Below, piece after piece: positions 1,165-33,200 of a DNA stretch of 64,000 bases (the first letter of the stretch is position 1; each line of letters begins with the position of its first letter). Below the pieces are notes generated by a model, which ran no database searches, was not told where the DNA came from, and was given only the letters and a program-made list of their open reading frames with translations. This stretch comes from Protoeuglena noctilucae (Eukaryota). The position numbers and the translations under genes were made by a program. The DNA lies in NCBI GenBank assembly GCA_958009085.1, contig OY253673.1:372001-436000 (forward strand). Direction: 5' to 3'.

Positions 1165-1574
1165 ACTGCCACGCTGCCCCTATCCTGCCCAGCCGACGAG
1201 CTGCCGACAGCCAGGCGGCCAGATCCAGGTCAAGCAGCGAAGTGTTGGCGGATAAGAGCCGCGCAAGCTCGCACAACGCCGCGAGAGCCACCACAAAGCC
1301 CGTGGATAAACCAATGAGGGCGAGGCTTGGTGCGATGCAGGAGTGACCAATATCTGCATCGGCGGTCTGCCCGACGACTCCTCTCGCTGCTCCCGCCTGC
1401 CCGCCACCGATGTTGCACCGTCAGAGCAGTGCTGGGACGGAGACGAGTGCTTTGGAAAGGCTGTGGACGATGTTTATGAACAGGAGATTGGCCTGACCGA
1501 ACTGCGACTCTCGCTCAAGGCCGGTGGAGGCGTCTGGAAGGGCGAGCGCCTCAGCGTCTGTTTTCGCTGGGAAG

Positions 1575-6943: not shown

Positions 6944-9900
6944 ATGGCCGGGCTGGGATGCACCACCGCGCGTGTGGCGGCGTGCAGGCATCGCGTGCCG
7001 GTCGGGGAGAGTTCGCGTTCCATCTGCGTGGGGTTCAGGAGGGCGCCCGCCCCCACCCCAGCGCGTGGTGCGCGGGGAGGGGCGGCGCAGGATGGGTCGT
7101 TGCATCCATCTCGCGCGGGCTCGCGCCGCGCTGTCCGGGCGTCTGCGCTGTTCGACAACCTGCAGCAGATGATCTCCGGCGACCCAGCTGAGAAGACGAG
7201 GAAGAAGTACTTTCCGCGCGTGGACAGGATCAACGGGCTGGAACTCACCATAAAGGTGCGCCCCTCGCGCCCCAGGGCGACGTTTCTGCCCGCTCGACTG
7301 CCCGCCCCATTTTGGATGTTGTCCGTCGCCCTGCTAGCCTTGCGGATTCCTGTCTACCACGAGCCAGCGCCCGCTCGAGCCCGGCACTGGGTGGCCAGTC
7401 GCTCGTGGCCTTCTCGCGCGCAGGAGCTCTCGGACGACGAGCTTCGCGCCAAGGCTTCCGAGCTTCGGGAGAGGGTTCAGGGCGGCGCGTCCCTGGACAG
7501 CGTGCTCGAGGAGGCGTTCGCGCTCGGTGAGCCGAGCAGCCGCGCGCCACCAAGCAGCTGCCCAACCCTAGCCCATCCCTCCCCGCCCACACACACACCT
7601 CCGCCCGCGCCCCCCCCGCAGTGCGCGAGGCGAGCTCCCGCGTGCTGGGCCTGCGCCCCTTCGACGTGCAGCTGATGGGCGGCATGATTCTTCACGAGGG
7701 TCAGATCGCGGAGATGCGCACGGGCGAGGGCAAGACCCTGGTGGCCGTCCTCCCCGCCTTCCTCAACGCCCTGGCCGGCAAGGGCGTCCACGTGGTCACC
7801 GTGAACGACTACCTGGCCCGCCGTGACTCGGAGTGGGTCGGCCAGGTGCACCGCTTCCTGGGTCTCACGGTGGGGCTGGTCCAGCAGGGCATGGACGAGG
7901 CGGAGCGCAAGCGGGCGTACGCGGCGGACGTCACGTACGTCACCAACTCGGAGCTGGGCTTCGACTACCTGCGTGACAACCTCTGCAACCGCCCCGAGGA
8001 GTTGGTGCAGCGCCCCTTCGCGTTTTGCATCATCGACGAGGTGGACAGCATCCTGATCGACGAGGCGCGCACGCCGCTCATCATCTCGGGATCCGCGGAC
8101 GCCCCGAGCGACAAGTACCAGAAGGCCACCAAGCTGGCGGGGGCGCTGGTGCTCGGGGTGCACTACACGGTGGACGAGAAGCAGCGAGCGGTGCTGATCA
8201 CTGATGAGGGCTACGCTGCGGCGGAGGAGGTCCTGGGCGTCTCTGACCTCTACGAGCCCCGTGCGCAATGGGCCACGTACGTCCTCAACGCCTTGAAGGC
8301 CAAGGAGCTGTACAAGCGCGACGTGCAGTACATCGCGAAGGGCGGGGAGATCATCATCGTGGACGAGTTCACTGGTGAGTGGCTGGGTTGACAATTGATA
8401 ACAGTTAGCGGGTGGTAGGCGGGTGGGGAGGGGCCCGGGTGTCAAGGCTTGTGTGGCGGGCAGTTTGCGTGGCCTCTGCGTTTCAGCTGACGTGTCAACG
8501 GGTCATTGAGTGGGCGATGAGAGTGTTTTGGTCAGACTGTTGCATGTGACACATGCAGCCATCGTCTAACGCGGCACCTCTCCCGCAGGCCGCACCATGC
8601 CGGGCCGCCGGTGGAGCGACGGTCTCCACCAGGCCATCGAGGCCAAGGAGGGCTTAGAGGTGAAGGAGGAGTCCATCACGCTCGCGTCCATCTCGTACCA
8701 GGCTTTGTTCCGCATGTTCCCACGGCTGGCGGGCATGACCGGCACGGCCGCCACAGGTGGGCGGCGGTGGGGGTGGTGGCGGTGGGGTGGGGTGGGGTGG
8801 TCCAGGCCACAAGTTGGGCTTGCGGCTGTGTCTGACCAGTGCGATCTCGGAACTTTGTTCCCGCATGGCCCTGCTGTGTCTGCCTGCTGGTCTCTCTGTG
8901 CACACGTCAGTGCCCATTCCAGCGCTGTGGCTACTGACGCCACTTGCGTTAGACTCAGCTCTCGCGGACTCGCTGCGATCGCAGAGACGAAGGAGTTCAA
9001 GGACATCTACGGCCTGGACGTGACGGTGGTGCCCCCCAACCGCATCATCCAGCGCGACGACTTCGACGACGTTGTGTTCGCCCGTCTGTCTGGCAAGTGG
9101 AACGCGGTGGTGACGGAGGTCAAGCGGATGAACAAGAAGGGCAGGCCCGTGCTCGTGGGGACCACGTCAGTCGAGGGGTCCGAGATGCTCGCACGTGAGT
9201 CGGGGTGGGGGTGGGATGGTGCATTGGGTGTGGGGAGCGCAGGTGAAGAGTATGGGCTGGGTTGGGTGTGCTGAGCGTGGTTGGGGTGTGGTCATGACGT
9301 GCAATGGTTGGGTGTGGAACTAGAGCTTTCAGCTACAGTATTGGTTGGGTCCTCATGAGCTGTTATCGCACGTGCCCTTGTCGGTGACTGGGTCACATGC
9401 GTGTGTGCCACGCACGGGAACCCTGACCCGCGACGTCGCCTGCAGAGATGCTGCGGGAGGAGGACATCACGTGCCAGGTGCTGAACGCCAAGCCCGAGAA
9501 CGTGGAGCGGGAGGCGGAGATCGTCGCGCAGGCCGGTCGCAAGGGCATGGTGACCATCGCCACCAACATGGCCGGTCGAGGCACGGACATCCTGCTGGGC
9601 GGCAACTCCGAGTTCATGGCCCGTTTGAAGGTCCGCGAGGCTCTGATGCCCCGGGTGGTGTCGCTGGTGGAGTCTTCGGACACCGTCCGACGCGTGCGGT
9701 CGTGGAAGGTCGCGGAGGGGCTGTTCCCCAGGGAGCTTACGGCTGAGGCGAGTGGGTGGTGGTGGGGTGGGGGTGTTGGTGGTGATAGTAGTGGTGGTGG
9801 TGGTCAACACATGGCTCAGGGTCTCACCTCACGTGGCTGCTTCCTTAGGTGCACTCGTGCACACGTGGTCATCCCAATCATCTTCCCTCTACCCCGCAGA

Positions 9901-11798
9901 CGAAGGCCCTGGTGGACGCGGCGGTGTCCAAGGCCGTGGATGCCTGGGGCGACCGTCGCCTGGAGGCCCGCCTTGCCGAGGACCGACTGTCGGTGGCCTG
10001 CGAAAAGGGGCCCACCGAGGACGCGGCTCTGCTGGCCATCCGGGAGGCGTTCCGTGCTGTGGAGAGGGAGTACGACGAGGTGGTTCGGAAGGACCGGGAG
10101 GAAGTGCGGGCGCTGGGGGGGCTGCACGTGATCGGCACTGAGGTGAGGGGCGGTGCGGGGGTAGGGGAGGGGGTGAGGGGGGGTGCAGGGGGTGGCAAAG
10201 ATCGGGAGGGGGTCATGGGGTGTGTTGGGATGTTGGGGAGCAACGTGGACGACATTGCAAGTGCTATGTTGAGGGCCAGAGTCCCGCCGCATCGACAACC
10301 ACCCACCTCACTCCTCACCCACCTCACTCCCTCTCCCTCTCCCTCTCCCTCCACCTCACAGCGCCACGAGTCCCGCCGCATCGACAACCAGCTCCGCGGC
10401 CGCGGCGGCCGGCAGGGCGACCCCGGCAGCACCCGCTTCTTCCTTTCCCTCGAGGACAACCTGTTCCGCGTGTTCGGCGGCAACAAGATCCAGTCCGTCA
10501 TGGAGATGTTCAGGGTCGAGGACCTACCGATTGAATCTGGCATGCTGACCAAGTCCCTCGACGAGGCTCAGAGGAAGGTCGAGGCGTACTTCTTCGACAT
10601 CCGCAAGAACCTGTTCGAGTACGACCAGGTCGTCAACACCCAGCGCGCTAAGGTCTACGCGGAGAGGAGGCTCGCCCTGGAGGCGCCGTCGCTCGAGGGG
10701 AAGGCGAGTCGGGGGATGGGGCGTGTCTGGGTGTTGGGTGGTGGGGAAGGCGAGTGGGGTGGATGGGGCGTGTGGGGGTGTCTGATGTTTGATGAGGCGA
10801 GTGGGAAGGAGATGAGAGATGGGAGGGATGAGGCATATAAGGTTGTTTGCTGAAGGGGAAGGCGAGTAGGGGGATGAGGTGGTGGGGGGTGTGGGGAGGA
10901 CATGGTGGGCGGGGTGGAGTTGGGGAGATGAGGCGTGGGTGGAGCGAGGGGTTGGCTGGCCTCGCCACACCATGGACACTGGTCTTACCTTGCTTGACCC
11001 CATCCCACCCTGCTTGACCCCATCGCATCTTGCTCAACCTCTCCCCACCCTGGTCGACCCCGCCCCACCTGCCTCGCTCCCTCACAGATGGTGGAGTACG
11101 CAGAGAAGACCGCGGACGACATCCTGGAGGCCAACGTGAACCCATCCGAGCCCGTCGACAGCTGGCGCCTCGACTCCCTCGCTTCTAAGATGATCCAGTA
11201 CTGCCCCATCATGGCGGGCGACGGCGTGACGGGTCTCTCCGGCGCCGACCTGCGAAAGGCGGCGGGGGCGGGTGGTCCCGCGGGGTTCGAGTCCCTCCGG
11301 GCGTACATGCGCCAGGCGTCCGTGCAGGCCTACCAGATGAAGCGGAGCTTCGTGGAGGGAGTGGAGACGGGGCTCATGCACGAGGCTGAGAGGTTCTTCT
11401 TGCTCCGTAACATTGACCAGCTGTGGAAGGACCATTTGCAGGCCATCAAGTTCATCCAGCAGGCCGTCGGGCTGCGCGGCTACGCCCAGCGGGACCCGCT
11501 GACCGAGTTCAAGCTGGAGAGCTACAACCTGTACCAGGAGATGATGTCCCAGGTGCGCAGGAACGTCATCTACAACGTGTACGTGTTTGAGCCGCTCAAG
11601 GCCAGGCGCCTGGGGGAGGCGGAGAAGGGTGCGGAGAAGGGTGCGGAGAAGGGCGGGGAGAAGGGCGAGGGGGCGGGGTCGCGCAAGGGTGGCAAGGGGC
11701 GCAAGGCGGGGGGTGGCGCGAGCGAGGGCGAGGGGGAGGGCGGGGAGGCAAAGGCGGAGAAGGAGGGTAGCAGCGTGGGCAAGGCCACGGCCAGGTGA
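6944..11798 (+). CDS. secA: Chloroplast (thylakoid) SecA translocase ATPase, spliced
   Basis: [89 protein letters not shown]. Transit peptide from ATG 6944. Confidence 0.97.
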
Positions 11799-18895: not shown

Positions 18896-19648
18896 TCATC
18901 GACCATCGAAGCTGGCCCCCCTGCGCCTCCTCGACCCCTCCTGCGACTCGCTCCGATCTCTCTTCTTCTCCTTCCGCCGCTTCTTCTCCTTCCTCTCCTT
19001 CTTCTCTTTCTTCTGCCCCTTTCGCTCCTCCCTCTCGCGTTTGCGGCCTCTCTCCCTCCCGTCCCCGCCACGCGCCACGCCGCCCTCCCCGCCCTCCCGC
19101 TCCGGCGCCCGCTCACGTGACCCACGGTCCGCCGCGCCGTGCAGCCCGCTCATGCCGCTCGGCAGCTCGAGCCCCTCGTAATCCATGTACGCACTGCCGG
19201 GCACGGAAGGGCACGCAGCAGGCTTGACGCAGCGGCACCGACCCCCACCGCCACCGCCCACGCCTACCGCACACGCCCACCCCCCGAGGCCTAGCGCACA
19301 CACTCACCCGCCCAGGCCGCGCCCCCGCGGCACGCTCGGCGCCGCCGTCACGTGTCCCGGCCGTGGGAAGGACTCCGAACGGGTCCCAGCCGCAGCCGTA
19401 GCCTCCCCCGCACCGCCCGCGCGGCCGCTACGGCTCGCTCCGGCACCACCCTCCGCCGCGCGCTGGCTCCGCGCCCGCTCCTCTCCCCCGCCGCCCTCCC
19501 GCTCGCCCCCCGGCTGAACCCCCGACTCGGCAAAGTGCTCCTCCCAAAGGGTCTTCTCGTCAGCCCTCCTCACGTGCGCCTCGGCGTCTCTGACCACGCG
19601 GAGGAGGAAGGACCCGCTGGGCCGTGGGGCGCCGGCCGGGCGCGACAT
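18896..19648 (-). CDS. Small nuclear-type protein, NKAPD1-like N-terminus with Lys/Arg-rich tail; 2 exons
   Basis: [36 protein letters not shown] resembles the NKAPD1 N-terminal motif (recalled, not searched). Second exon has KKEKKERKEKKRRKEKKR. Confidence 0.6.
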
Positions 19649-19663
19649 CGGCGGCAGGGCGCG

Positions 19664-20513
19664 TCACAGCTTGACGGCCTTGGCCTGGCGGATGCGCTGC
19701 GGGCGGAGAGGGATGTCCGATACGCCAGTCATTCTCGCCGCCAGACTGCAGCGCGGCGAGGGCTGGTGCCAGCAACGCATCGAGTCCCCTACCTCCAGGT
19801 GCCTCGCGACCAGGGGCGTGAGCCCGATGGTGATGGGGGTCCGCACGGGGAAGAGGAACTGCGGGAGACGGTCTCGCAGATGAGAGCGAGTTCCAGGTGC
19901 GCACTTGGGGAAATCAAAGGGACCCACGTCGTCGTAGCGCAAAGCCGGCACCTTGTTGCAGATGAAGGCCAGCGCCAGGGTGCCACCCGTGCCAGATACG
20001 AGCTTCTCTAGCCAGTTGGACTCCTCGTTGCGCATGGGATCGTCCGAGCCGTCCTGCGGGTGGGGCAGGAAAGGTCCGTGACCACGTCGTGCCGGCCACC
20101 CAACGTGGACCCGCGTGTGCAAGGCCACGCGCGCCACCGCCTCGCCTTCTTCGATCCCTGAGGCATCAGCCCATAGTTCTGGAGCATGCCCTTGACATCG
20201 ACGTTGGACTGGAGCGCCGCGTAGCAGACGCCTGGGGAGAGAGCGGGCGCGGGGGGTTCGGGGAGGGCCAGAAGGGATCGGCAGCGGACACTCGTTGTGA
20301 AGGATGATCGAAACTCACTGATTCCGGTGAAGTAAACGGTGAAGTGCACGCCCACGGCCACGGTTCCATACTTTCGGAAGAGCTGCGGGAACGGACTCGA
20401 GCGCGTGTCTCGGCTGCGGTATCGAGCGCGATGTGAATGGTGTATATTCCAAGCAGCGCGGGGGCGGCTGGCGCGGGGGAATCGGCGCGCCTCGCCTCCC
20501 GGACAGCAGCCAT
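19664..20513 (-). CDS. FAM210/DUF1279-family membrane protein, spliced; start uncertain
   Basis: LFRKYGTVAVGVHFTVYF...CYAAL...VDV...GTLALAFICNK...LFPVRTPITIGLTPLVARHL matches the DUF1279 signature. Confidence 0.85.
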
Positions 20514-20901
20514 CTTCCGGGGGAGGCGCGCCTCCCGTCCGAACGCCGGTGCGCGCGCGACTCGAAGGCGCAGGGGCCGCTGCCCCCGATGCTGACAATC
20601 TCGAGTACCCCCAACGCGCACTATCTCCACAATCGGCGTCCCCGAGAGGGAGGGAGGGCTGATTCAACGGAAGGGGCACTCCGTTTCCGCCCCTGAGCAA
20701 TCCACGCACAGCAAGCAAGGCAGGTCGGAGCTCTCAGCGACCATCACTGGCCCATGCTGGCAAAGTGAATCGAGATACGCGCCTGACATGACGCAGCCGA
20801 GCGGAACTGACGCGGGCTTGACACGCAGGTGGTCTGACGCGACAAGGGAGGTGCTATCTCTATCAGATGGTGATGAGCGATTCAACAGTCGAGGGGTGCT
20901 A

Positions 20902-21144
20902 TGACTCTCAGAGCCACGCCTTGCGGCAGAAGTGCCGTCCCCCGGGGCAGCTGACACCCCGGGGTTTCCATCGTTGCAGTGCATATGGCACGTGGCCCGC
21001 CCCCGCTAGGTCGCCCCACCCTAAGGCAAAGGGGTCGCCCACCCCGGGTTCTTGCACCCCTAGCCCCGTCGCTGCGCCCGAAGGCAGAATCGCCGTCCCA
21101 GAGTGGGACGATGCAGCCGCGGGGGCCCTCCGTGGAGACCCCCG
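20902..21144 (-). ncRNA. Candidate structured RNA (multi-hairpin), probably the retroelement 3' terminus
   Basis: At least six stems on the minus strand, with cUUCGg, cGCAAg and cCACGg tetraloops and G-U pairs that only form on the minus strand. Confidence 0.5.
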
Positions 21145-21593
21145 GGCGTCTATTACAAAAGGTGAGGCCGAGGCTAATGACGATCTGTCTGTGTAGCTTA
21201 TGTGCGGCCAATCATGACATCCCCCGCTCCCTACCCTCCTCCCATCCTCCTCAGGCGGCCCAGTTGGCTCGCCCACCTGGCCACGCTGGCCCGGACGCGA
21301 GGGCGGTGGGGGCGGTCCGAACGCAGACGGCGTTCCTTGGGGGGCGCAGCGTTGCCCCTGGGCGCCCCGCTCGCCCACGCTGCGCCCCTGAGGGCCGGCT
21401 GCCTCTCATGTGCACCGCCCCAGACCGCCCCGCTCCGGGTGCGTGCGCCGGCACGACCCCCTCGGCCGTGTGCCCAGAGACCCACGACGTGACCCCGCTC
21501 CTCGCTCCCGCACGTCGACCTTGGCCCTTGGCCCGTCCTCTCCCGCGCCCGTCGGCCTTGGCCCGTCCCTCAACTCCTCGCCCCCACACGCCC

Positions 21594-21810
21594 AGATGAC
21601 CTTGGCCTATCACGCTGACGACCTTGGCCCATCACGCTGACGACCTTGGCCGAATGCGCTGACGACCTTCAACCGACGCTGTGGCGACCCTGGCCCTTTA
21701 ACGCTGACGACCTTGGCCCACCTCCCGCTCCGCGCACCCGCGCGCCTGATAACCGAGGCCTGCCCCCCGCTCACGCGCACCCGCGCGCCCTGATAACCGT
21801 GGCCTGCCTC
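21594..21810. repeat. Array of ~22-bp repeats (acgctgacgaccttggccc, ~6 copies) followed by two ~38-bp repeats
   Basis: Direct reading. The second unit cgcgcacccgcgcgcc(c)tgataaccgNggcctgcc occurs twice. Confidence 0.85.
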
Positions 21811-22973
21811 GCGCCCCCGTCGCCCCCCCAAACACCCGACACCCCTGTGTCGCCCAGCCCATGCCCACCCACACCACTCGTTGCCCCTTGTGTTACTCTC
21901 GCCGCCGCCGCTCGCTCTTGCCGCGCTGCCATCGCGCCCGCCCCCAAAAGCCCGCTGCCCTGCTGTGTGTCGTGCGAGGGGTCGCCCCCGCCAGCGCCAC
22001 CATGCCGGGCGCCAGCACCCCTCGCCATCCGTTGCTCTCCTGCAGGGCCTCCTCAGCAGACTCCCAAAGACAGGCCCTCCGGCCCCGCTTGCGCTCCCAC
22101 TCTCCCCGTCTCGTCGCAGCCACGCCGCTCTCTGATCCTGTGGCGCCTGGTCCGTTCTGCGCCACTGCCGGGTGTTCCCACGACATCCCCGGCGTTCCAC
22201 CCCACGGGCGCCATGTCTCTCGCCACTGTCTGAGCCCATCAACCCGTTGCTGCCAGCTCTGCCCCGACGTTTGTCCCCCGTCGCACCCTTTGCCAGCCCC
22301 CCCCAGCGGGGCTGGTCTCTCACGTTGGCTGGAGCACAGGCGACGCGCTGGCGACCCCCACGCGGACCCACCCGACCAGCGCCAGAGCCCCTGAAGGACC
22401 ACGGGCGGGGAGGCCACGCGGCACGCGCAGTACCGTGGGTGTGCGGGGCGCGCCGCAACGGCGACGGAGCAGACGCCCCACGGGTGAGCGCTGGCGGCTG
22501 TGGGACACCAAGGGCCTGCGAGGCATGGCTGCAAAGGGCTAGGGGTGAGGCAAGGGTGCGTGTGCGCGTCCGTCCAGGTCTGCGGTCGGGGAGAGGTGAC
22601 GGTGTGCGTGACGGAGGATGAGTGTCGGTGTGGGTCCTGACCTGCGGCTGGCAAAGAGGGTGGTCGTGGGAGGATGCGAGGAGGTCTGTGCGTGATTGGG
22701 GGAGGTCAGGAGGTGCAGATGCTGTGCTGGATCGGTGTGTGGTGCTTGGTGCGTGGGGAGTGATGCGCTGAGGGGTGCGAGTGCTCACCTGGGCATTAGC
22801 TGTGAGGAGAGGGTGCTGAGCCTTACCTGTGCAGCTAGGGGGGGAGTGCGTGGGGCAGGAGGGCTTGCGAAAAGGGCGAGTCTGGTTGGGCGTGTGAAGT
22901 GAGGTGTATGGGGGGGCGTGGTCCGTGAGAAGGGTGTGGCGTGGGGCTGGCAGGAGGAGGGGTGGGAGATGAT

Positions 22974-23081
22974 GCGTGCTGAGCAGGAAGGTGGTTTATG
23001 TGGGGGTCCATGTGGAAGAGGAGAGGGGCGTGCTGAGCAGGAAGGTGGTTTATGTGGGGGTCCATGTGGAAGAGGAGAGGG
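22974..23081. repeat. Perfect 54-bp tandem duplication
   Basis: gcgtgctgagcaggaaggtggtttatgtgggggtccatgtggaagaggagaggg at 22974 and 23028. Confidence 0.92.
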
Positions 23082-23905
23082 GGTTGAGAGGTGAACGTGT
23101 GTATGTCAGTGGTGATGCGCGGTGAGTGGGCAAGAGTGGTGCTGAGCGGCGAGATCGGGGGATGAGTGACGAGGGTGCGTGCAGAGAGTTAGAGGGCGTG
23201 TGTGGTCTGGTTGGAAGAGGCATCTACCTGTTAGCTGCGGGCATGGACGGGGAGGCGTGGCATGCGGGTGAGTGCTGCTGGGGCAGGGTGCGTGTGCAGT
23301 GAGATGTGGGGGGTGGAAAGTGTGCGTCATAGGAAGGCAGTGGGCTGGCTTAGGGACCTGGTGGGAGCAATGCGGTCGGGTGGATGTGGGAGTAATGCGG
23401 ATTGGGGTGGGGTGGCATGGCCGGCTGCGGGGAAAGTGTAGAGCAGGCGTGTGAGTAAAGCTGTCGAGTGTGCGTCCGAGAACCTGCGAGGCATGCGAGA
23501 GATGGAGCGTGGGTGCGCAGAAGCCCTTGGTGTCCCGAGCGCCGGCACCCTCCCCGTGAGGCGCCCGCCCTTGCCGCCACAGCGCGCCCCACGCCCCTGC
23601 AGCTGCGCGCGCATCGCGTGGACCCCCCCGCCCGCGGCCCCTCTCAGGCTCCGGCTCCGGCCAGGCAGCCCAGGGGGTCGCCGGTGGCGCCGCCGTGCGG
23701 TACTCCAGCCCATATCATCCTGGGTACAGGGGAGCTTGTTTTAGCCGGCAGACGGGCTCTTCCGTAGATGCTCAGTGTGGCCGTGGACGCCCCAGTTGGC
23801 CGGGGCGCCGATGCCGGAACGAGCAGCCCGAAGGCCACCCGTCCGGCGCCGGCGCCCCGGCCCGAATGTCGTGGGGTGATGGCGTGCTGCGAATGAAGAG
23901 GCCCC

Positions 23906-26900
23906 TCAGGGGAGTAGCGGCTCGACGGCTGCCCATGTGGGCGCAGTGTAGGTGAAGGTGGACCTCGCCGGGTCTCTTGGGTGTAAGAGGGCGTCGTCAG
24001 GGTGCGTGCAGCGCGCGAGGGCCCACCCGCCCCGGTACGCCGCCAGAGCGACGAGCTCCTCGGCCATGATGCGCGTCATCTGCGCGAACAGCTGTGCCGG
24101 GGACGCGTCCGCCCCCGCGTCCTCCGTCAGCTGCTGCCGCCTGCGCCAGATGACCTGCACGGTCGCCCCCGCCACGACCGCCCACGTGAGCGGCCCCAAC
24201 CGCGCGCCCTCCGGCACGCGCAGCAGGAAGAGGGCCGACGGGCGGAGGGGCGCCCCCTGCGCCCCCCCCGCCCACGCCACGATGCCCCTTGCCACGCGCC
24301 ACACCTCCCGCGCGCGCGAGCACTCCCAGAACGCGTGGGCCGCGCTGTCCTTTCCCATGCACGCCTCCCCCTCCGTCGTCAGCAGCGGGCACTCGTCCCG
24401 CTCCGCCCAGTACATCCTGTCCTGCGTGGCCCACCCGTCCGCCAGCGTCAGCCACAGCCGCTCGTGCAGGGCGTCCGACAGCGGCAGTCCGTTGAGCGCC
24501 ACCAGCGTGCGCCTCAATCCCTCTCCCGTTATGCCGTGTCCCTCCCCCAGCGCCGCCGCCCAGCCCTCCGCCTTGCGCTCCAGCCGCTGCCGGATCGCCG
24601 CCCTGTCACACGTCGTCCTCGCCGCCTCCCGCACCGTGTAGGAGGCCAGGTCCAGCGCCGCCTTGGAGGCGACGCCGGGGTCCAGTGCCCAGCCCGGCGC
24701 GGTGGCCGTCATGGGCCGGTAGAAGTCGTTGGCCTCCCCGCCGCCCGGGGAGGCAAGTCGCAGGCGCTCCATGAAACCCTCCGTGAGCGCCAGCCCGTCC
24801 CACGGGTCCCATTGCCCCTCCACGTCTGGCCGGGCATACTCGTTGCCCGGCCCAAGGAGGCCCAGGTCCCGCATAAAAGCCCCAACCACCCAGCCGAGGC
24901 CCCTCCGATCCACCCCCGGCAGCCGATCATAGCCCAGCGCGAACGCCCAGGAGACCCACGTGTCCCATCGCCGCGCCGGGTCCCGCATGCAGAGATAATG
25001 CCCCACAGTTCCGAAACCCCGTAACGCCATCGCCCTCCCCACCGGGTGCAGGAGGAGGGGCCGGCCGCCCCCCGCCGGCCGCCCAGCACCCCCCTCGTCG
25101 ATCCCATCATCCGAATTGTCGTCGCCCGACGCGCCGTCGTGCACCCACGCCCCACCAGCCCTCCCATGGGCGCCCGTCGCGAAGCTGTGGAGCGATGAGG
25201 CCGAATCGTCTTGGTCCTGTCCCATGTCGTTGTGGAGGGGGCCAGCTGCCCCCTCCATCGCCGGCGCCCCCAGGGCTGCCACCCCCGCGCCCGGGCCGCC
25301 CCCGCCGGCGGCACAGAGGACCCCCGGGGTGAGAAGCGACGCGCAGAGTAGATCCCCCTTTGTAGTCCCAGTGACGGGGGTGAAGAAGTCCGTAGAAGAG
25401 GCGAAACGCGAGCCGTCCGTGCCCGCCAGGCCCCCGCCGCCCACGCGCGCCCCCCGCCAGCCATGCCCGTCCATGGCCACGTTGGACAGGCGGTCCGCCA
25501 GGGCGTTCTGCTCCCGTGGCACGTGCTCCCAAGTGATGTCGAGGCCCGCCGCGAGCCTCTGCGCCTCGGTCCACAGCGGCACCAGCGCCGGGTGCCGCAG
25601 CGCCGAGCAGTCCCGCGGATCCATGGCGCGGATGACGAGGAGGGAATCCCCCCGGACGCGGAGCTTGGTGGCGCCGAGCTCGACTGCCGCGCGTAGCCCT
25701 CCCAAAAGCGCGGCGAACTCGGCCTGGTTGTTGGAGGCCCCGCGCACGGCGGGGCCCGCGAGCTCCAGCGTCTCCACCCCCTCGCCTTCCCCGGCCGCCA
25801 GCACCGCCCCCGCGCCAGCCGTGGACGTGTCGGAACCGTTGCCCCGCGAGACCCCGTCGAAGTTGAGCGTCAGCCGGCCCTCCGCCGCCAGGTTGGTCCA
25901 GCGCTGCTGGGCGACCTCGTCCGTCGTGGGTGCCAGAGGTGGCGGCGCGTGCACGGGCCCGAGGGTCGCGCGCAGGGACCCGAGGCCCTTGATGGCGTCG
26001 CAGATGCTCTCGAGCGCCGGTAGCTTGCCCCGCAGGCGGCGGGACTCGATCAACTGCGCCACGTGGCAACCGTCCGTCTCGGGCAGTGAGAAGGGCAGCA
26101 GGCCCAGCCGGCCTGCCCCGAGCCCCTCCAGGCACGCCGTGAGGATGCCAGCGAGACCGCCCAACTGGCCGTGAGCGCCCACGCGCTTCGTGATGAGGGC
26201 GCGCGCCAGGTGCCGGAGCCGCCGCGCCGCCGTGTGCGCGTCCAGCGGGAGGGCGCCCAGCCCCCCCTCCTCCGGCGGGGCGGTCAGCATGATGCGGCCC
26301 ACACGGAACCACACCTGCCCCGCCGATCGTGCGTTGAGGACATAGCGCTCCTGGACCCTCCGCAGGTCAGCGACGCACGAGTGGTCGGCGGCGGGGGACA
26401 TCTCCAGGTGGTACCCCGCGAGCGAGGTGATGTAGGCGTTGGCGACGCGCGCCCGACCCCGGATCGGCAGCCCCAGCGATGACGCCGCGTCCGCGCGGCG
26501 CAGGGCCTCCCCCAGCCGCCCGGGCCACACCAGCGCCGCCTGCTCTCTCGTCTGCGCCCCCAGCAGCCGCACGCCCCCCGGCTCCACCCCCCACGGGCAG
26601 CCCTGCGCGGCGGCCTTGGCCTCCTGCCGCTTGTTGATGCGTCCCAGTCGGTAGAGCTTCGTCTTGGTCTGGCTCGCCTTCAGCCCGGACACACGGTGGA
26701 AGTCCCGCAGCACCTCGGCCAGCTCCCGCCACGGGTCGAGTTGGTTCCTGTCGCGCCCCACGAGCCGTTGGAGCAGCACGTTGAAGTCGTCGGCGAAGGC
26801 CAGCAGCGTCTCGGCCCTGCCGCCCGTCGTCCGGATGCCGAGCACGCGGTCGCACCGCGGGCCGCCCGGCAGCTGCACCGGCTCCTGGCCCCACGCCCGC

Positions 26901-29476
26901 AGCCTCTCTGCGAGGGGCTCCACCGCCAGCACGAAGATGAGCGGGCTCAGGGGGCATCCCTGCTTGACGCCCCGGTTGAGCGGGAACGGCTCCCCCGCCG
27001 CCCCGTTGAGGACCAGGCTCGCCCGGCTGTCGCTCTGCAGCGCCACCGCCGCCTTGACAAAACGCGGCGGGAGCCCTCCCCACGCCATCGCGTCCGCAGC
27101 CCACCCCCGGAAGGCCGTGTCGTACGCCTGTTTGAAGTCCACCAGCACCGCCCACGCCGACTGCCGCCGGATGCGCATGAGCTCGTCGAGCAGATGCAGC
27201 GAGAAGATGGCCGTCCCAATGTCACGCCCGGGGACGAAACCCAACTGGTCCTCGTGCACGAGCTGCGGCAGCACCCGCAGCAGCCGCGCCGTCAGCACCT
27301 TGGCCGAAGACTTGTAGAGGACGGACAGTAGGGAGATGGGGCGGTACCGCCGCCAGTCCGTCCGCGAGCCGCCCTTGTGGATGAGCGTGATGGCGGCGTC
27401 CGCGAGGCGGCCGTCGTGCCCCTCGCCGCGGAGGAGCTTGTTGACGAAGTAGGCGACCACCCGCTCGACACCCGCCTCGGTCCCGGTGCCCTGGCACGCC
27501 TTCAGCAGCGCCGGGGAGATGCCGTCCGCGCCACCGCAGCTGTCGCCCCGTAGACCCTGTATCGCCTCCGCCGCCTCCGCCCGTGTCACGTCTGCCTCGA
27601 GAGCGGCCCTCGCCTCCTCCGACAGCGGCGACCGCGGGTTGCGCAGGAAGTTAGCGCGTGCCCTCTCATGTTGGCCGTCCGCGGAGGCAGGGGGCGCGGC
27701 AGGGGCGTAGAGCTGGGCCATGTTGGTCTGCAGGTCCCGCGCGAGGTCGTCCGTGACGCCCTCGACCCGCCGCCGCCACTTGAAATGGGCCGTGATCCGC
27801 CGACTCGGCACGGCCCCGAAGACCCGCAGAAAGTGCTTCGCCCGCTCGCTCTGCCACTGGACCTCCTGCTGCTCCAGCACCGTCAGCTGGCGCTGCAGGT
27901 CCAGCATCCGGTCCCAGTCCTCCGTCGCGTTCGTCCGCTGCGCCCTCCTCTCTGCCCGTCCCAGTTGCTTCTCCAGACGCCTCCGCTCCCCGTCCCGCCG
28001 CCGCCGCACCACCAGGTTGATCGCCTCCGCGCGGTGCCGGATGACCTTGGCCACTCGCACCGACGTGCACCCCGGCCCGTCCGCCGGTAAGTCCCTCCAC
28101 ACACCCCGCCGGAATCGCTCGGCCTCATGGCTCCCCGGCGCCCAGAGCGGCCGGACCTGCCGCAGCGGGTTGCGCCCCGCGGCCCTGTCTGCCCGCCGCC
28201 GTAGCGTCAGGACGAGCGCCTTGTGGTCCAGCCCGGGCACGAAGCGCGCCGCCAGCGTCGCCGGGTACCGGACCAGCAGGGCCGGGCGCGCCAGGCAGCG
28301 GTCAATGCGCGCCGCCGGCGTCGCTGCCCCCTCCGCTCGCGCCCCGAACCACGTGTAGGTGTCCCGGCGCAGCCCCAGCTGCACGTGCACGTCCGCCAGC
28401 CCCTGCGGCCCCGTCACGTTCTCCGCCCAGTGGATGACCTTGGCCAGGTCGTCGTGGTAGCGCCGGGACGCCCGCTCGAGCGGGTGACCCGACGTGCAGT
28501 TGAAGTCCCCGACGACGATCGTCTCCCTGTGCGCCTGGCGAGGCGGCATCAGATGCCGCAGCCGCGCAGTGAAGTCCCTGTGCGCTGCCGCCCCCCCGGA
28601 CGCCGGCGCGTAGACCCCCACCACCGTGAAGCGCCGGTCGGCCCATGCGAGGTCGGCTGCGCACGCCCGCCCCGCCAGCCCTTCCACGTCCGCCCCGCGC
28701 CGCTTCGGCGCGCCCGCCACCGACTCCCGATGTACCAGCACCCCCACGCCCCCCGGGCCGCCGTTCTCGTCCAGCGACCAGTGGCAGAAGTATTGGGGGA
28801 AGAATCCCGACGCCACCGCCTCCTGCCCCGCCCGCATCTTGACCTCCTGTAGAACCACCACGTCCGCCCGCAGCCTCCGCACCAGCCGCCGCACCGTCGC
28901 CCGCTTGCCCGCCATGGCCCCGCTCGACAGCCCCCGCACGTTGACGCTGACGACCCGCAGGTCGTCGGGCGCGAGGTCCCGCGCCGCGCTCCGCCTTCCC
29001 CGTCGCCGTGGCCCGCGCGCCGGCACCGCGGCCGGCGCCATCCGCGGCGGCGGCGGCGGCGGGGGCAGATTCCCCAACGGCGGCAGCGGGATGGGTGGGA
29101 GCGCGCCGATACGCGCTCCCGGCGCCTCCCCAACCTCCGACCCTTGCGCTCCCGAGCTTCGAACGCCTCCAGACCGACTCTCCCCGCTCCCCCGGCCTCG
29201 CAGACCGCTCCCGCCCCCCCTTCTCCTCGCGCCGCCATGCTGCCCCAGCGCGCCCCCGCGCCGCGCACCCGCGCCCGCTCCGCCTCCTCCGCCCCCCGTA
29301 GACCCTCCTGCGATATCTTCTGAACCTTCTGCATGCAAAAGACCCGACGCCGGCCCCGCCCCGCCACCGCGCGGGCCCCGAACGCTCGAGCTAACAACAC
29401 CATCTGATCGGGCCGCCCCCGTCGCCGCATCCCCCTCCCGCCGGCCTCCCGGCCCATCCATGCTACAGATCGTCAT
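23906..29476 (-). CDS. Retrotransposon polyprotein: AP endonuclease + reverse transcriptase + RNase HI + CCHC zinc knuckle (intronless, ~1850 aa)
   Basis: APE: SVNVRGL, LQEVK, VGDFN, RIDR, DHK. RT: YRPISLL, DFKQAYD, GVKQGCPLSP, AFADD. RNase H: NFDGVSRGN, NNQAEF, GDS, HVPREQNALAD. Knuckle: CPLL...C...HAFWEC. First ATG at 29476; alternative at 29041. Confidence 0.96.
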   Translation of the reverse strand: MTICSMDGPGGRREGDAATGAARSDGVVSSSVRGPRGGGAGPASGLLHAEGSEDIAGGSTGGGGGGAGAGARRGGALGQHGGARRRGGGSGLRGRGSGESRSGGVRSSGAQGSEVGEAPGARIGALPPIPLPPLGNLPPPPPPPRMAPAAVPARGPRRRGRRSAARDLAPDDLRVVSVNVRGLSSGAMAGKRATVRRLVRRLRADVVVLQEVKMRAGQEAVASGFFPQYFCHWSLDENGGPGGVGVLVHRESVAGAPKRRGADVEGLAGRACAADLAWADRRFTVVGVYAPASGGAAAHRDFTARLRHLMPPRQAHRETIVVGDFNCTSGHPLERASRRYHDDLAKVIHWAENVTGPQGLADVHVQLGLRRDTYTWFGARAEGAATPAARIDRCLARPALLVRYPATLAARFVPGLDHKALVLTLRRRADRAAGRNPLRQVRPLWAPGSHEAERFRRGVWRDLPADGPGCTSVRVAKVIRHRAEAINLVVRRRRDGERRRLEKQLGRAERRAQRTNATEDWDRMLDLQRQLTVLEQQEVQWQSERAKHFLRVFGAVPSRRITAHFKWRRRVEGVTDDLARDLQTNMAQLYAPAAPPASADGQHERARANFLRNPRSPLSEEARAALEADVTRAEAAEAIQGLRGDSCGGADGISPALLKACQGTGTEAGVERVVAYFVNKLLRGEGHDGRLADAAITLIHKGGSRTDWRRYRPISLLSVLYKSSAKVLTARLLRVLPQLVHEDQLGFVPGRDIGTAIFSLHLLDELMRIRRQSAWAVLVDFKQAYDTAFRGWAADAMAWGGLPPRFVKAAVALQSDSRASLVLNGAAGEPFPLNRGVKQGCPLSPLIFVLAVEPLAERLRAWGQEPVQLPGGPRCDRVLGIRTTGGRAETLLAFADDFNVLLQRLVGRDRNQLDPWRELAEVLRDFHRVSGLKASQTKTKLYRLGRINKRQEAKAAAQGCPWGVEPGGVRLLGAQTREQAALVWPGRLGEALRRADAASSLGLPIRGRARVANAYITSLAGYHLEMSPAADHSCVADLRRVQERYVLNARSAGQVWFRVGRIMLTAPPEEGGLGALPLDAHTAARRLRHLARALITKRVGAHGQLGGLAGILTACLEGLGAGRLGLLPFSLPETDGCHVAQLIESRRLRGKLPALESICDAIKGLGSLRATLGPVHAPPPLAPTTDEVAQQRWTNLAAEGRLTLNFDGVSRGNGSDTSTAGAGAVLAAGEGEGVETLELAGPAVRGASNNQAEFAALLGGLRAAVELGATKLRVRGDSLLVIRAMDPRDCSALRHPALVPLWTEAQRLAAGLDITWEHVPREQNALADRLSNVAMDGHGWRGARVGGGGLAGTDGSRFASSTDFFTPVTGTTKGDLLCASLLTPGVLCAAGGGGPGAGVAALGAPAMEGAAGPLHNDMGQDQDDSASSLHSFATGAHGRAGGAWVHDGASGDDNSDDGIDEGGAGRPAGGGRPLLLHPVGRAMALRGFGTVGHYLCMRDPARRWDTWVSWAFALGYDRLPGVDRRGLGWVVGAFMRDLGLLGPGNEYARPDVEGQWDPWDGLALTEGFMERLRLASPGGGEANDFYRPMTATAPGWALDPGVASKAALDLASYTVREAARTTCDRAAIRQRLERKAEGWAAALGEGHGITGEGLRRTLVALNGLPLSDALHERLWLTLADGWATQDRMYWAERDECPLLTTEGEACMGKDSAAHAFWECSRAREVWRVARGIVAWAGGAQGAPLRPSALFLLRVPEGARLGPLTWAVVAGATVQVIWRRRQQLTEDAGADASPAQLFAQMTRIMAEELVALAAYRGGWALARCTHPDDALLHPRDPARSTFTYTAPTWAAVEPLLP

Positions 29477-29884
29477 TTTACCGCACGCTGCCAAGCGCGC
29501 GGCGCCTCGCAAGCCCCCCTCGGCTCCGGGGCGCGGCTCGTCCCGAGCCAACGAGACCGAGCGGCTGTGCCTTCACCTGGCGCCTGCCAGGGGTTTTGCG
29601 AACTCGCCTCCTGCCTAGAGAGTCGCGATGCACATGACCGTTCCGCCGCACCCCTCGCCACCCTCCCGCTCGCGCTACGCCGACGGCCTACCTGATGATG
29701 ATGAGCGATGATGATCCCGCGCGCCTAATCCGATGATGAAAGCGAAAGCCCCCCCTGGGCGGGCCAGCGCGTCGACTATTGAGGCGAAACGCGAGGCGTC
29801 GAGAGGCGTGATGCGAGCCGTCGACGGATCGGAAAAAGGTCACTAAACACTTCTCCACAACGATCACGCCATTTAGACCTCCGC

Positions 29885-29894
29885 AAAACAAAAA
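29885..29894 (-). terminator. Pol III oligo-T terminator of tRNA-Leu
   Basis: Minus strand TTTTTGTTTT begins 9 nt after the tRNA 3' end. Confidence 0.7.
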
Positions 29895-29902
29895 GGCACT
29901 TG

Positions 29903-29986
29903 TAGCAGTGGTGGGGTTCGAACCCACGCGCACTTTCGTGCAGATGCTCTTAAGGCACCCTCCTTGAACCACTCGGACACACTGCC
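29903..29986 (-). tRNA. trnL-UAA: tRNA-Leu(UAA), intronless, long variable arm
   Basis: GGCAGTG-TGTCCGAGTGGTTCAAGGAG-GGTGC CT TAA GA GCATC-TGCACGAAAGTGCG-CGTGGGTTCGAACCCCAC-CACTGCTA. A and B boxes, acceptor stem and an AT-rich element ~30 nt upstream are all present. Confidence 0.95.
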
Positions 29987-30253
29987 ACGGAGGCAAGTAT
30001 GGGTAAACCCCCGTGTATAGATATCAATACACCTGCGGGGCATGACACGCCCGCTCTGGCACCGCCCTAACGCCTCCCAGCGGTCCCAAGCCGCCCAACC
30101 GCCCCCCGCCTTGGTCAGAACTTTACATTTCGCTCCCCGAGTCACAACCGGAGCCCGGGGACGCCCTGGATATCCGCGCCTCGCCGCGCCTCGCCGTTTC
30201 CCCCGCCCCGCGCCGCCGCCCGCCGGGCCCTGAGAGCGCCGCGCTAGAGGAAG

Positions 30254-33200
30254 ATGGCGTCGCGTTTCTGGGCGGCCGCCTCGTCCTCGGAGGAAGAGAG
30301 CTCGGAGAAGAGCGAGTCGAGCGAGGTGGGGGGAGGGACGCTGCGCGCGCCGGCAATGCCCCAGCGTAGGTTCGAGGCCACGGGACCCCAGCGGCAGCGC
30401 CGGCGCCCCGGCGGATCCGCGCGCCACGCCCCGCCCGCAGTGGGGCTCGGAGGGGTCCGAGTCCGAGTCCGATGACTCCTCCAAATCGTCTTCCGAGAGC
30501 TCTTCGTCGGGGTCCTCGTCCGAGGTGGGGCCGGATCCGCGCGCAGGGGGCGCGCCCGGTGCCCGGGGGCCCCCGCGAACGTGGCGGTGGCTGCTGCGCC
30601 GCGTGCCGTCCCCGGGGGCCGCCTCCCGCCCGCGCGGGCGCTGACTGGGCTTCCTCATGTCATCGCAGAACGCGAGGAACAAGTTCTTGGCCGGGGGCGA
30701 TTCGGACTGGGACTCGGACGACTCGGACGCCCGGGGCGGCAAGCGCACCGTCCGCTCGGGCCGGGACAAAATCCTCTCGGCCATCTCCGACGTCGCGGAC
30801 GCGATCGACGATGCCGTGGATGCCGGGGAGTGGACGGTCGTGCTTGACAAGGTCGACGACCTCTTCCAGGCCGCCGACAAGTGGGTCACCCTCACGTCGG
30901 GACCCACGCGCAAGGGCCGCGTCCCGAACGCCTTCGTGCGCGCCCTCGTGGAGCTCGAGGACGGCGTCGAGAAGCAGTTCGCGGAGGAGAACAAGGAGGA
31001 GCTCAAGAAGCTGAACAAGGCGAGACGCGCAAGCTGCGCGCGCCACCGCCGAGGCGCAGGCCCCGGCGCCCCGGCCCGCGACGCGCCCTTCCGGCCCGTG
31101 CTCCGCAGACGAACGCGAAGGCGCTCAACACCCTGCGCCAGCGCCTGCGGAAGGCCGTGCAGGTGGACGACCTGCCCGAGCTGATGAAGCGGTGCCGCGC
31201 CGACCCCGGGGACTTCCTGGAGGAGGACGAGGAGGCGGACGAGGGCGGCGCGGAGGCGGACCGGGCCGCGGAACCGGAGAAGGACTCGATCTTTTCGATG
31301 GACCCCAAGGACATCACGTTCAAGGTCGTGAACGAGAAGCTGCAGGAGGCGCGGCTGCAGCGGGGGCGCAAGGGCGTGTCGCGGCAGGACCAGCTCAACC
31401 TCCTCCTCTTCCTGCGCCGCCACGCCAAGGGCCAGGCGCAGGAGGTGGCCGTTGTCCTGGCGCTCATCAGCCTCATGTTTGACCTCCTGCCCGCCACCGC
31501 CACGCACCTCCCCGCGGCCCTCTGGCGCCGCTCGGTGCTCTACCTCTCCCACGTCCTCGACGTCGTCGAGACGTCCGGGTCCGTCGTCGTGGACGAGCTC
31601 GCCGTGTCGTTCGACGAGGCCACCGACGAGCCCGACGCCGCCGCGGGGCCCGTGCGCGTGCCGGGCAACCTGGTGGGCCTCGTGGAGCGCCTCGACGAGG
31701 AGCTCTTTAAGTGCCTCCAGCACACGGACCCCCACACCAACGAGTACCTCTCGCGGCTCAAGGACGAGGCCGTGCTGCTCGCCGTGGCCCAGCGCGTGTC
31801 CAAGTACCTGGAGAGCCGGGGCGACACGGCCGGCGTGGCGCGCGTGGCCCTGCGGCGCATCGAGCACTACTACTTCAAGACGGACGCGGTCTTCGAGGCG
31901 CTGCGGCGGACAGCGCAGGAGCCCATCGCCATCACCATGAAGGACGCCGAGACGCGGCTCTCCTTTGCCATGGAGCGCGAGGGCGCCGAGATGCCGGTCG
32001 AGGACGACGGCGCGGAGGAGGCGGAGGCGCCGCCCGTCGAGGAGGCCGTCGCGCGGATGGTGAGCGGCTTGTGGCGGGCGCGGAGAGTCGTGGGCGCGGA
32101 GTTGCCTCATAGCCCACCAAGCCTTGGGTCACGCGGTGCGGTCGCCGTCTCTGCCAGCGGGCGATTCGGCGTGGACGCGTACGCTGGGGTGGTCCTAACC
32201 GTGGCGCGCTCAACTCCTCCCGGCGCCCCCCCGACCCCCGCAGACGCTTCGGCTGGACATCTCGCGTGACGAGACGCTGACGGACGTGGTCAAGAGCCTG
32301 GCGCAGGTCATCTACCGCCACGGCGACGAGCGCTCCAAGACCCGCGCGCTCCTCTGCTCCGTCTACCACCTCTCCCTGCGCGGGGCCTTCTACCAGGCGC
32401 GGGACACGCTCCTCATGTCTCACCTCCAGGAGAGCGTGACGAACATGGACATCCAAACGCAGATCCTGTTCAACCGCGCCATGGCCATGTTCGGCATCTG
32501 CAAATTCAAGGCCGGCCTCATCCAGGAGTCGTACAACTGCATGGCGGAGCTCTACGGGTCGGGGCACGCCAAGGAGCTCCTGGCCCAGGGCCTCATCCAG
32601 TCCAAGACGCCGGAGAAGACGCAGGAGCAGGAGGCGCTGGAGCGGCGCAGGCAGATGCCCTTCCACATGCACATCAACCTGGAGCTCATGGAGGTGAGGG
32701 CGGGAGCCGTGGCGGGCGGCACAGATGAAGCGCGTGCATGCGGCTGGCGTCTCAGCGTTCGCCTGTCCCTGTCTGGCCTTGTTTGATCTCGTCGCGTTCT
32801 AATTATCCGCAGACGGTTCACCTGTCTTGCTGCCTGGTGCTGGACCTGCCCCAGCTGGTGCGGGGTGGCCGCGCCGCCATGCAGTCGCTGCCCTTCAAGC
32901 GTCTGATGGACAACCAGGCCAAGGCCTCGTTCATCGGCCCGCCCGAGACGGTCCGCGACCACATCATGGCCGGCGCGCGGGCGCTGCTGCAGGGCGACTG
33001 GGAGCTGGCCATGTCATATGTGTCGGCCTTAAAGGCGTGGGACCTGCTGCCCCAGAAGGCCAATGCCATGGAGATGCTGCGCGAGCAGCTCAAGAAGACG
33101 GCGCTCAAGGCGAGTCTCGGGGTCTATGTTTCTTGGGGCATAGCTGTGGCACAGGTGGGGGTCTGTGTTGACGGCCGGTGACGAGGGAGAAGCGTGCCGA

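Follow-up and report, generated by a model that had tools for sequence, protein, structure and literature searches.

A multi-copy L1-like LINE family with one long open reading frame, a 3-kb non-coding tail and no poly(A), probably from a marine green alga

The element described here, a repeated unit of about 9.0 kb in contig OY253673.1 of Protoeuglena noctilucae (assembly GCA_958009085.1), resembles several described groups of retrotransposons without long terminal repeats (non-LTR elements), or long interspersed elements (LINEs). The window, by which we mean the whole 64,000-nt stretch that was analysed (contig positions 372,001 to 436,000, forward strand), is numbered from its first letter. 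Among the described groups, L1 elements have a FADD motif as a characteristic trait; the ingi and L1Tc elements of trypanosomes encode a single polyprotein with an apurinic/apyrimidinic-type endonuclease (APE), reverse transcriptase (RT) and RNase H and with a zinc-finger motif, and have no ORF1 (ORF, open reading frame); and in the stringent-type LINEs the RT recognises the element's own 3′ untranslated region (UTR). Insertion by target-primed reverse transcription usually leaves a target-site duplication (TSD). Dualen/RandI elements are said to have been described by Kojima and Fujiwara in 2005 as carrying APE, RT and RNase H in a single long ORF.

Excerpts of PMC8226300 name Dualen/RandI among the green-algal elements and, together with excerpts of PMC5203782, record L1 elements in chlorophytes, the Zepp-type ones having an ORF1. 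According to the available part of PMC5348765, the L1 elements of the plant Ta11 group and of oomycetes carry an Archaea-like RNase H (aRNH) at the C-terminal end of ORF2, with a CCHC motif upstream of it, and other RNase H-bearing non-LTR elements have the CCHC motif downstream of the RNase H. Fifteen green-algal L1 families are tabulated in the excerpted Table 3 of PMC3747384, two with an (A)n tail, eight with other simple repeats and five with none, and a missing poly(A) is not new for green-algal L1 elements.

The window element is, in our judgement, quite probably an autonomous L1-like non-LTR retrotransposon of ~9.0 kb that lies at 20866–29874 (minus strand) in the nuclear DNA of a marine green alga with a GC-rich genome. 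Its 3′ end is firm and its 5′ end lies at 29777 or beyond, with 29874 as the best estimate, both taken from contig depth and from the loose ends of contigs. The LINE family is genuine and multi-copy and is probably still mobile; its anatomy, with a single ORF, a 3-kb non-coding tail and no poly(A), is that of an unusual L1-like variant. The proposed layout would begin with a leader of ~0.4 kb to the first ATG, or of ~0.83 kb with a start at M146, continue with one polyprotein gene in the order APE endonuclease, RT, archaeal-type RNase H and CCHC-bearing C-terminal segment, include no ORF1, and close with a 3.0-kb non-coding 3′ UTR ending in ...CTCATCACCATC without poly(A).

A single intact ORF occupies 23906–29476 on the minus strand (1856 aa), as the initial annotation had reported. 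Its most likely coding region runs from M146 to the stop codon (23906–29041, 1711 aa), judging from the G+C content at third codon positions (GC3); the maximal ORF begins at 29476. An APE-type endonuclease domain is predicted at aa 177–407 (28256–28948, minus strand; Pfam Exo_endo_phos, E 3.4e-16), in which the motifs QEV, GDFN, RID and LDH are recognised by eye, and a reverse transcriptase domain with a FADD active-site motif at aa 708–943 (26648–27355, minus strand; Pfam RVT_1, E 1.3e-23). The best solved relative in a PDB search is human LINE-1 ORF2p, which aligns contiguously over aa 280–976 (E 2.6e-28), while R2 proteins reach only E 7.6e-10 in the same search. By these Pfam and PDB matches a non-LTR-type RT and an N-terminal APE, with their catalytic motifs intact, stand together in one ORF, which bears out the earlier description of an L1-like retroelement. 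One neighbouring cluster in the Atlas is auto-named 'Transposon TX1'.

Between the RT and the CCHC motif lies a predicted RNase H domain, at aa 1213–1333 (25478–25840, minus strand; Pfam RVT_3, E 1.4e-12). Its matches in the PDB are Rv2228c (1.4e-18), Halobacterium RNase HI (4.7e-14) and S. tokodaii ST0753 (9.6e-10), with which the catalytic DG, AE, GDS and VPR..ADR motifs align, and by this alignment the predicted domain is of the aRNH type. No Pfam match follows the RNase H. In the C-terminal segment a C-x9-C-x7-H-x4-C motif (C1696, C1706, H1714 and C1719; 24320–24391, minus strand) is read by eye and from alignment: C1706, H1714 and C1719 are invariant across ten aligned sequences, seven of them distant relatives at 19–26% identity and three family members, and zf-RVT matches fall at this place, below threshold, in three of the seven distant relatives. 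Pfam does not call zf-RVT in the window protein itself. The zf-RVT-like C-terminal CCHC motif that follows the RT in L1 elements is thus represented here by C1696-x9-C1706-x7-H1714-x4-C1719.

With the green-algal L1 elements (L1-1_CR/ZeppL, Zepp and others) the window element shares an APE followed by an RT and a C-terminal CCHC-type motif, L1 ORF2p as the best match, FADD, a green-algal host and the frequent absence of poly(A). It differs from them in lacking an ORF1, which the Zepp-type elements have in the excerpts of PMC5203782, and in its RNase H inside the ORF, its 3-kb 3′ UTR and its identity of 31% to the nearest non-self relative. An L1-like ORF2 with an aRNH-type RNase H (RVT_3) is also a feature of the plant Ta11-type and oomycete L1 elements, and ST0753 is among the best PDB matches; however, the order in the window, RT, aRNH, ~360 aa and CCHC, is the reverse of the one given for those elements in the available part of PMC5348765, and they have an ORF1 and mostly a poly(A), whereas the window element has neither. 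The window element has in common with ingi/L1Tc and the I/Tad type a lone polyprotein whose domains run from APE through RT and RNase H to a zinc finger; its RT has L1 ORF2p as the best solved match, and its RNase H appears to be archaeal. Dualen/RandI elements resemble it in their green-algal host and in having APE, RT and RNase H encoded together by one long ORF, but in the window Pfam finds no second, restriction-like endonuclease after the RNase H (where the structural model is of low confidence), and this segment aligns with L1 relatives of the zf-RVT type.

Clustering at 90% identity gives the protein family 49 members, centred on a protein that shares 99% identity with the query, and the listed members span aa 1–1856 at 91–99% identity to the window protein. 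The multi-copy status is seen in copies whose protein is 96–99% identical to that of the window copy. A full-length relative of 1711 aa (P0025) is 98.8% identical by BLASTP, with residue differences of 0.6–2.1% per region. Outside the family, the closest of 1.84 billion representatives searched (P0035) has 31% identity (E 4e-67), and 33,176 proteins in this set match at E <= 1e-3. RT and RNase H were compared by BLASTP in 149 of the 150 listed matches, the best of these 33,176, with P0004 outside the compared set; 15 of the 149 match both domains. Among the matches listed, the RNase H match ends no more than 100 residues from the C-terminus in 11 of these 15 relatives, and an internal RNase H position is common to the window protein and P0041.

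Evidence for further copies comes from contigs of four public runs mapped on 19000–31500: X2, a marine metagenome; X9, an RNA library from the same sample; X4, labelled organism A; and X13, labelled organism B. Summed contig depth is no copy number, as the tool itself warns, and only its shape and order of magnitude are used. The right flank is single-copy, being covered by one 9648-nt contig that begins at 29845 in both X2 (depth 15.3) and X4 (depth 48), whereas summed depths inside the element are 59–833 and 169–1957 against flank values of 15 and 48. Depth rises from 5′ to 3′, as is expected of 5′-truncated LINE copies. Successive X2 bins along the ORF have depths of 59, 77, 63, 90, 93, 65, 82, 82, 82, 92, 100, 149, 130 and 112, and those along the tail 147, 168, 142, 205, 236, 322, 374 and 833, the last bin containing only 219 nt of element; the X4 bins are noisier and go from 169 in the 5′-most to 1957 in the 3′-most. 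What is expected of a non-LTR element, scattered copies that share their 3′ end and are truncated to differing extents at 5′, is seen here indirectly, in contig depth rather than in aligned copies. Pieces of ORF and tail are also present in X13, with 1–14 differing letters per contig of 261–639 nt. There is no second copy of the element within the 64-kb window. A protein-guided search for further copies found none in metagenome contigs and only two irrelevant bacterial loci (L001, L002) in genome contigs, and the 22-nt pattern of the 3′ end has no matches in the metagenome, genome or viral contigs searched.

The 3′ terminus of the element is firmly placed at 20866, the exact base at which two X2 contigs and two X9 contigs stop matching and enter unlike flanks. 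Beyond it the flanks have a consensus agreement of only ~0.6 and no T-run, and therefore represent different insertion sites without poly(A); such disagreement also speaks against a single repeated target, which Tx1-type specific insertion would need. The terminal 16 nt (20866–20881, minus strand; in the sense direction ...ATCGCTCATCACCATC) are shared by other copies, which match down to 20866 and then diverge; in X9 there is also a variant 3′ end, in which GATGATGAG and ATTCAAC are retained.

These same 16 nt had been taken as the left TSD of an 8.8-kb element (20882–29693), with its right counterpart at 29694–29709. The pair is indeed present: GATGGTGATGAGCGAT at 20866–20881 and GATGATGATGAGCGAT at 29694–29709 are 15/16 identical direct repeats with an 11-nt exact core. 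The first base of the left member is the very one at which, by independent mapping, the other copies cease to match and the element ends; no match of at least 15/16 to it is found in the 1-kb 5′ side in any of 2000 shuffles, and the alignment can be stretched to 19/22. We nevertheless regard boundaries set by this pair as very improbable. The left 16-mer must be the 3′ end of the element itself, since other copies also have 20866–20881 and depart from the window no earlier than 20866, and the right one, a near-copy in the 5′ leader on the minus strand, lies inside contigs of ~3x depth that cross 29709 and continue to 29777; neither is flank, and the 5′ end falls at 29777–29874, not at 29709. 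A repeated target would rescue the 8.8-kb model only if it were as abundant as the 3′ ends, and the depth of 29710–29777 is only ~3.3–3.5x.

Comparable pairs also arise by chance. When the space that holds this pair (4 kb of the 3′ side against 1 kb of the 5′ side) is searched, three independent direct pairs of at least 15/16 appear, including one with a 16/16 match within it, and at least one pair of this quality arises in 14 of 100 shuffles. Local alignment of the leader with the 3′ end scores 29, and 200 shuffles give a mean of 21.3 (standard deviation 3.1, maximum 34). That the pair exceeds chance is not confirmed, and the pair alone is unremarkable; the resemblance of the 3′ terminus to a site ~165 nt from the 5′ end may be meaningful. 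Several ATC/CATC-type motifs of the leader at 29690–29745 on the minus strand, TTTCATCATCGG and GGGATCATCATCGCTCATCATCATC among them, echo the 3′ terminus. The leader was considered as a fragment of the 3′ end of an older copy of the same family and this was rejected, there being no similarity past the 16–22-nt match; it might still be a 3′-end fragment from a copy of a related family.

The non-coding tail, or 3′ UTR, occupies 3,040 nt at 20866–23905 on the minus strand. The stop codon is not marked by any jump in depth, position 23901, which lies 5 nt beyond it, is bridged by a contig in X2 (depth 100.6) and in X4 (depth 343.5), and contig 28 of the RNA run X9 spans 23209–23974; the tail therefore belongs to the element, as had been proposed, and depth keeps rising along it to 20866. 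It has no codon-position signal (GC 0.55–0.74 in every phase), no Pfam match in any of its 10 open frames, and no Rfam match above threshold, only two sub-threshold chance matches. Frame-breaking indels of 1 and 4 nt between copies are common in the tail, and the ORF indels listed are minor or form compensating pairs.

The tandem and inverted repeats recorded earlier in the tail are likewise present. Tandem repeats with 22/44-nt units vary in copy number at 21598–21808, with a 22-nt insertion at 21608 in X13, and a 54-nt unit is doubled in the window copy at 22974–23082; the main contigs carry one such unit, as seen from a joint 22973>23028 with depths of 109 (X2), 458 (X4) and 29 (X9). Two inverted-repeat arms of ~150 nt, the left at 22371–22520 and the right at 23516–23665, match at 75% over 133–140 nt by BLAST (E 3e-7; mean column identity 76%) and enclose ~1 kb whose sense strand is rich in C and A. 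This block may go back to a nested insertion long ago that the family has kept. It is also what could make the whole tail a foldback-type insertion, that is, an unrelated repeat or nested transposon that merely adjoins the LINE at this locus, since the tail has its own inverted repeat around ~1 kb as well as tandem repeats, and its composition shifts along its length. We hold this to be very improbable, given that ORF-to-tail contigs stand at ~6.6x (X2) and 7.2x (X4) flank depth with no step at the stop codon and that no joint skips the inverted-repeat block; any nested insertion would have hit a master copy and is now family-wide.

At the 3′ end of the tail there is no A-run, and the flanks of other copies begin after 20866 without a T/A run, in agreement with the poly(A)-less end described before. 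The poly(A) or simple-repeat tail of L1 elements is thus missing, which is not disqualifying for green-algal L1 families. Among side observations in the mapped contigs, some X2 and X4 copies have an internal tail deletion of 885 nt (joint 20952>21838, depth 14.9 and 22.5, with an 8-nt overlap), and a further joint passes from 27547 to 27839 (27547>27839) by way of 18 other letters.

At its other end the repeated unit is bracketed to 29777–29874. Contigs covering 29276–29777 (X2, depth 53.3) and 29431–29777 (X4, depth 152.2) cross 29709 unbroken at ~3.2–3.5x flank depth. An X9 contig leaves the window exactly behind 29874, and the start of the flank contig at 29845, with words of 31 letters, places the branch after 29874, which is the most likely 5′ end. 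The 5′ region is common to some 3–4 copy-equivalents as far as 29777 and to at least two as far as 29874. In place of the ~220-nt leader of the initial annotation, 301–398 nt of element are left upstream of M1. This leader upstream of the first in-frame ATG (29477–29874, minus strand) has ATC-rich motifs and a GC of 0.61–0.69 in all three phases, and holds no separate sense-strand frame besides the main one. A separate ORF1 of the RRM, CCHC or coiled-coil type, as in the L1 clade, is not found there, and the longest copies of the family probably have none, as the initial annotation had supposed.

ORF1 could instead have been lost, if the unit were a 5′-truncated, still mobile derivative of a longer ORF1-bearing element that obtains ORF1 protein in trans; the lack of ORF1 would then not be a true trait of the family. 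So few copies reaching the 5′ region would suit such a derivative, one RNA-run contig that runs 84 letters past 29874 into unlike sequence could be a longer version, and ORF1 is normal in L1-clade elements (excerpts of PMC5203782). We disfavour it as rather unlikely: the longest copies have one common 5′ region and no scattered truncation points, the leader contains no ORF1-like frame or domain, and no raised-depth contig continues past 29874 in the two DNA-type runs, in which the single-copy flank contig takes over.

Downstream of the first ATG, aa 1–145 (29042–29476, minus strand) form an in-frame stretch that is Gly/Arg-rich and then poly-Pro. Its GC3 is 0.697 overall and 0.53–0.75 in 40-codon windows, like that of non-coding DNA, against 0.88–0.97 from about M146 onward, 0.89–0.93 in the ORF and 0.925 in a piece of the host eIF3c gene, and it has no Pfam match. 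Because GC3 of the coding type begins only at M146, translation probably starts there, and the Gly/Arg/Pro stretch would then be untranslated leader. Relative to the copy P0021, aa 1–145 differ at 9 of 145 residues plus a one-residue in-frame indel and the next 331 residues, the APE region, at 9 of 331, which is weak evidence. Four database proteins begin at M146; this carries little weight, as contigs break in the poly-Pro-coding repeat at 29033–29073. Of the low-complexity N-terminus of the initial annotation the in-frame stretch stands, but it is probably not coding, and the idea of an RG-rich leader that replaces ORF1p finds no support in a stretch that lacks a coding signature.

The LINE reading suggests the following course of events. 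Copying would proceed by target-primed reverse transcription: the endonuclease would nick the target, and from this nick the RT would prime synthesis, starting at the 3′ end of the element itself. Synthesis would often stop early and so produce the 5′-truncated copies and hence the depth gradient, and the element's own RNase H would remove the RNA template. With no A-tail, the RT would have to recognise the 3′ UTR or the terminal sequence ('stringent' recognition); we infer recognition of a 3′ structure from the absent A-tail together with the sharp common terminus. In doing without a long A-tail and in having a defined 3′ terminus common to its copies the family resembles stringent-type LINEs such as eel UnaL2 and SART1, and its extreme 3′ end is over-represented, as would be expected of a cis signal. 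It differs in that no conserved stem-loop is demonstrated in the window family, in a terminal simple repeat of at most 3–4 imperfect ATC/CATC units, and in that no partner short interspersed element (SINE) is identified.

Over the last ~220 nt (20866–21084) depth jumps from 374 to 833 in X2, in a bin that is only half element, and from 1558 to 1957 in X4. This sharp rise suggests many very short copies or a SINE-like partner with the same 3′ end. Only as a tentative and unlikely proposal would we go further and see in the family an undescribed L1-like lineage without ORF1 and poly(A), with an aRNH captured independently between RT and CCHC, with a long 3′ UTR and its ...CTCATCACCATC end serving cis recognition, and with a SINE-like partner or very short copies sharing the last ~200 nt. 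In this proposal the leader's near-copy of the 16-mer would have a function or record past events, perhaps as the fossil of a master copy inserted at the 3′ end of a related element, and sites just downstream of tRNA genes might be preferred targets.

Several observations weigh against the reading of this unit as an autonomous L1-like retrotransposon with the ends and the 3′-end recognition proposed above. Both termini are drawn from contigs of four runs and not from aligned DNA copies, the best holder of a contig may be the window's own source, as the tool warns, and the estimate of 29874 combines one loose end in an RNA run with the start of the flank contig. Placement in the L1 clade is suggested by the best PDB match and by motifs, not by a phylogeny with named references. 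The AlphaFold model of the C-terminal segment is poor (mean predicted local distance difference test score 47.2), and Foldseek with this low-confidence model gives no significant match, the top one being human L1 ORF2p at E 1.4. Relative to the flank, the element is about as deeply covered in the RNA library as in the DNA run, which gives no sign of transcription. Folding of the 3′ end is no better than that of 200 shuffles (z −1.18 for the last 220 nt and −0.98 for the last 120 nt), 26 and 29 of which fold as well, though hairpins are present; the earlier suggestion of an RNA structure in place of the poly(A) does not gain from this. Finally, no shared word of at least 6 nt adjoins 20866 and either 29777 or 29874 at the one locus examined.

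The missing TSD could reflect a target deletion, or the two junctions may stem from different insertion events that were brought together when copies recombined or when the assembly passed through the repeat. Repeats of 9 kb whose copies are ~99% alike are of the type that misleads assemblies, and such an origin of the junctions is compatible with the LINE identity of the element. Nothing direct speaks against it; inside the element the contigs contain no joint or break specific to this locus. We consider it improbable all the same. No empty-site joint is seen in the contigs of the four runs.

If the autonomous LINE reading holds, its interest lies in the host as well as in the element. Marine picoplanktonic green algae have compact genomes with few described transposons, and an apparently active LINE would be useful for annotation and as a strain marker. 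The family also bears on how L1-like elements manage when both of their best-known aids in cis and in trans are missing. A narrow literature search, with Repbase outside its scope, did not turn up any described L1 that lacks ORF1 and has a tail of 3 kb; a truly ORF1-less element would be a natural test of whether ORF2-type proteins alone achieve cis preference, and its sharp terminus without poly(A) makes 3′-end recognition directly testable. The internal archaeal-type RNase H would be one more instance of a domain that retroelements have captured repeatedly. How LINEs are understood in general does not change; green-algal L1 families without poly(A) are already in print.

The only tRNA gene in the 64-kb window, tRNA-Leu(TAA) at 29902–29986, lies on the same strand as the element, 27 nt upstream of its best-estimate 5′ end at 29874, with the T-run terminator of the tRNA gene in between. 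Elements of the TRE group in Dictyostelium are targeted to the vicinity of tRNA genes, and the proximity seen here, at one locus only, could be chance or a hint of such targeting. On the other side of the element, the left flank at 19000–20667 is nearly uncovered in X2 and X4, in which the right flank matches its contig at every base; in the RNA run 20334–20823 is matched exactly by one contig. Filtering, a difference between strains or a join made by the assembly at the repeat could each account for the gap, and holes in cover prove nothing.

The neighbouring genes in the window are ordinary nuclear ones (Clp protease, SecA, Kelch, eIF3c and a protein kinase), and the GC of the window is 63–74%. 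Fragments of Clp protease (434–1420, minus strand) and SecA (9849–10850, plus strand) are plastid-related nuclear genes, consistent with a photosynthetic host. The gene for host eIF3 subunit C (30657–32269, plus strand; Pfam eIF-3c_N, E 7e-60) begins ~0.8 kb from the 5′ end of the element and is spread over at least two frames, which implies an intron or a frame change; the best named relative of this fragment is from Pedinophyceae sp., at 55% identity.

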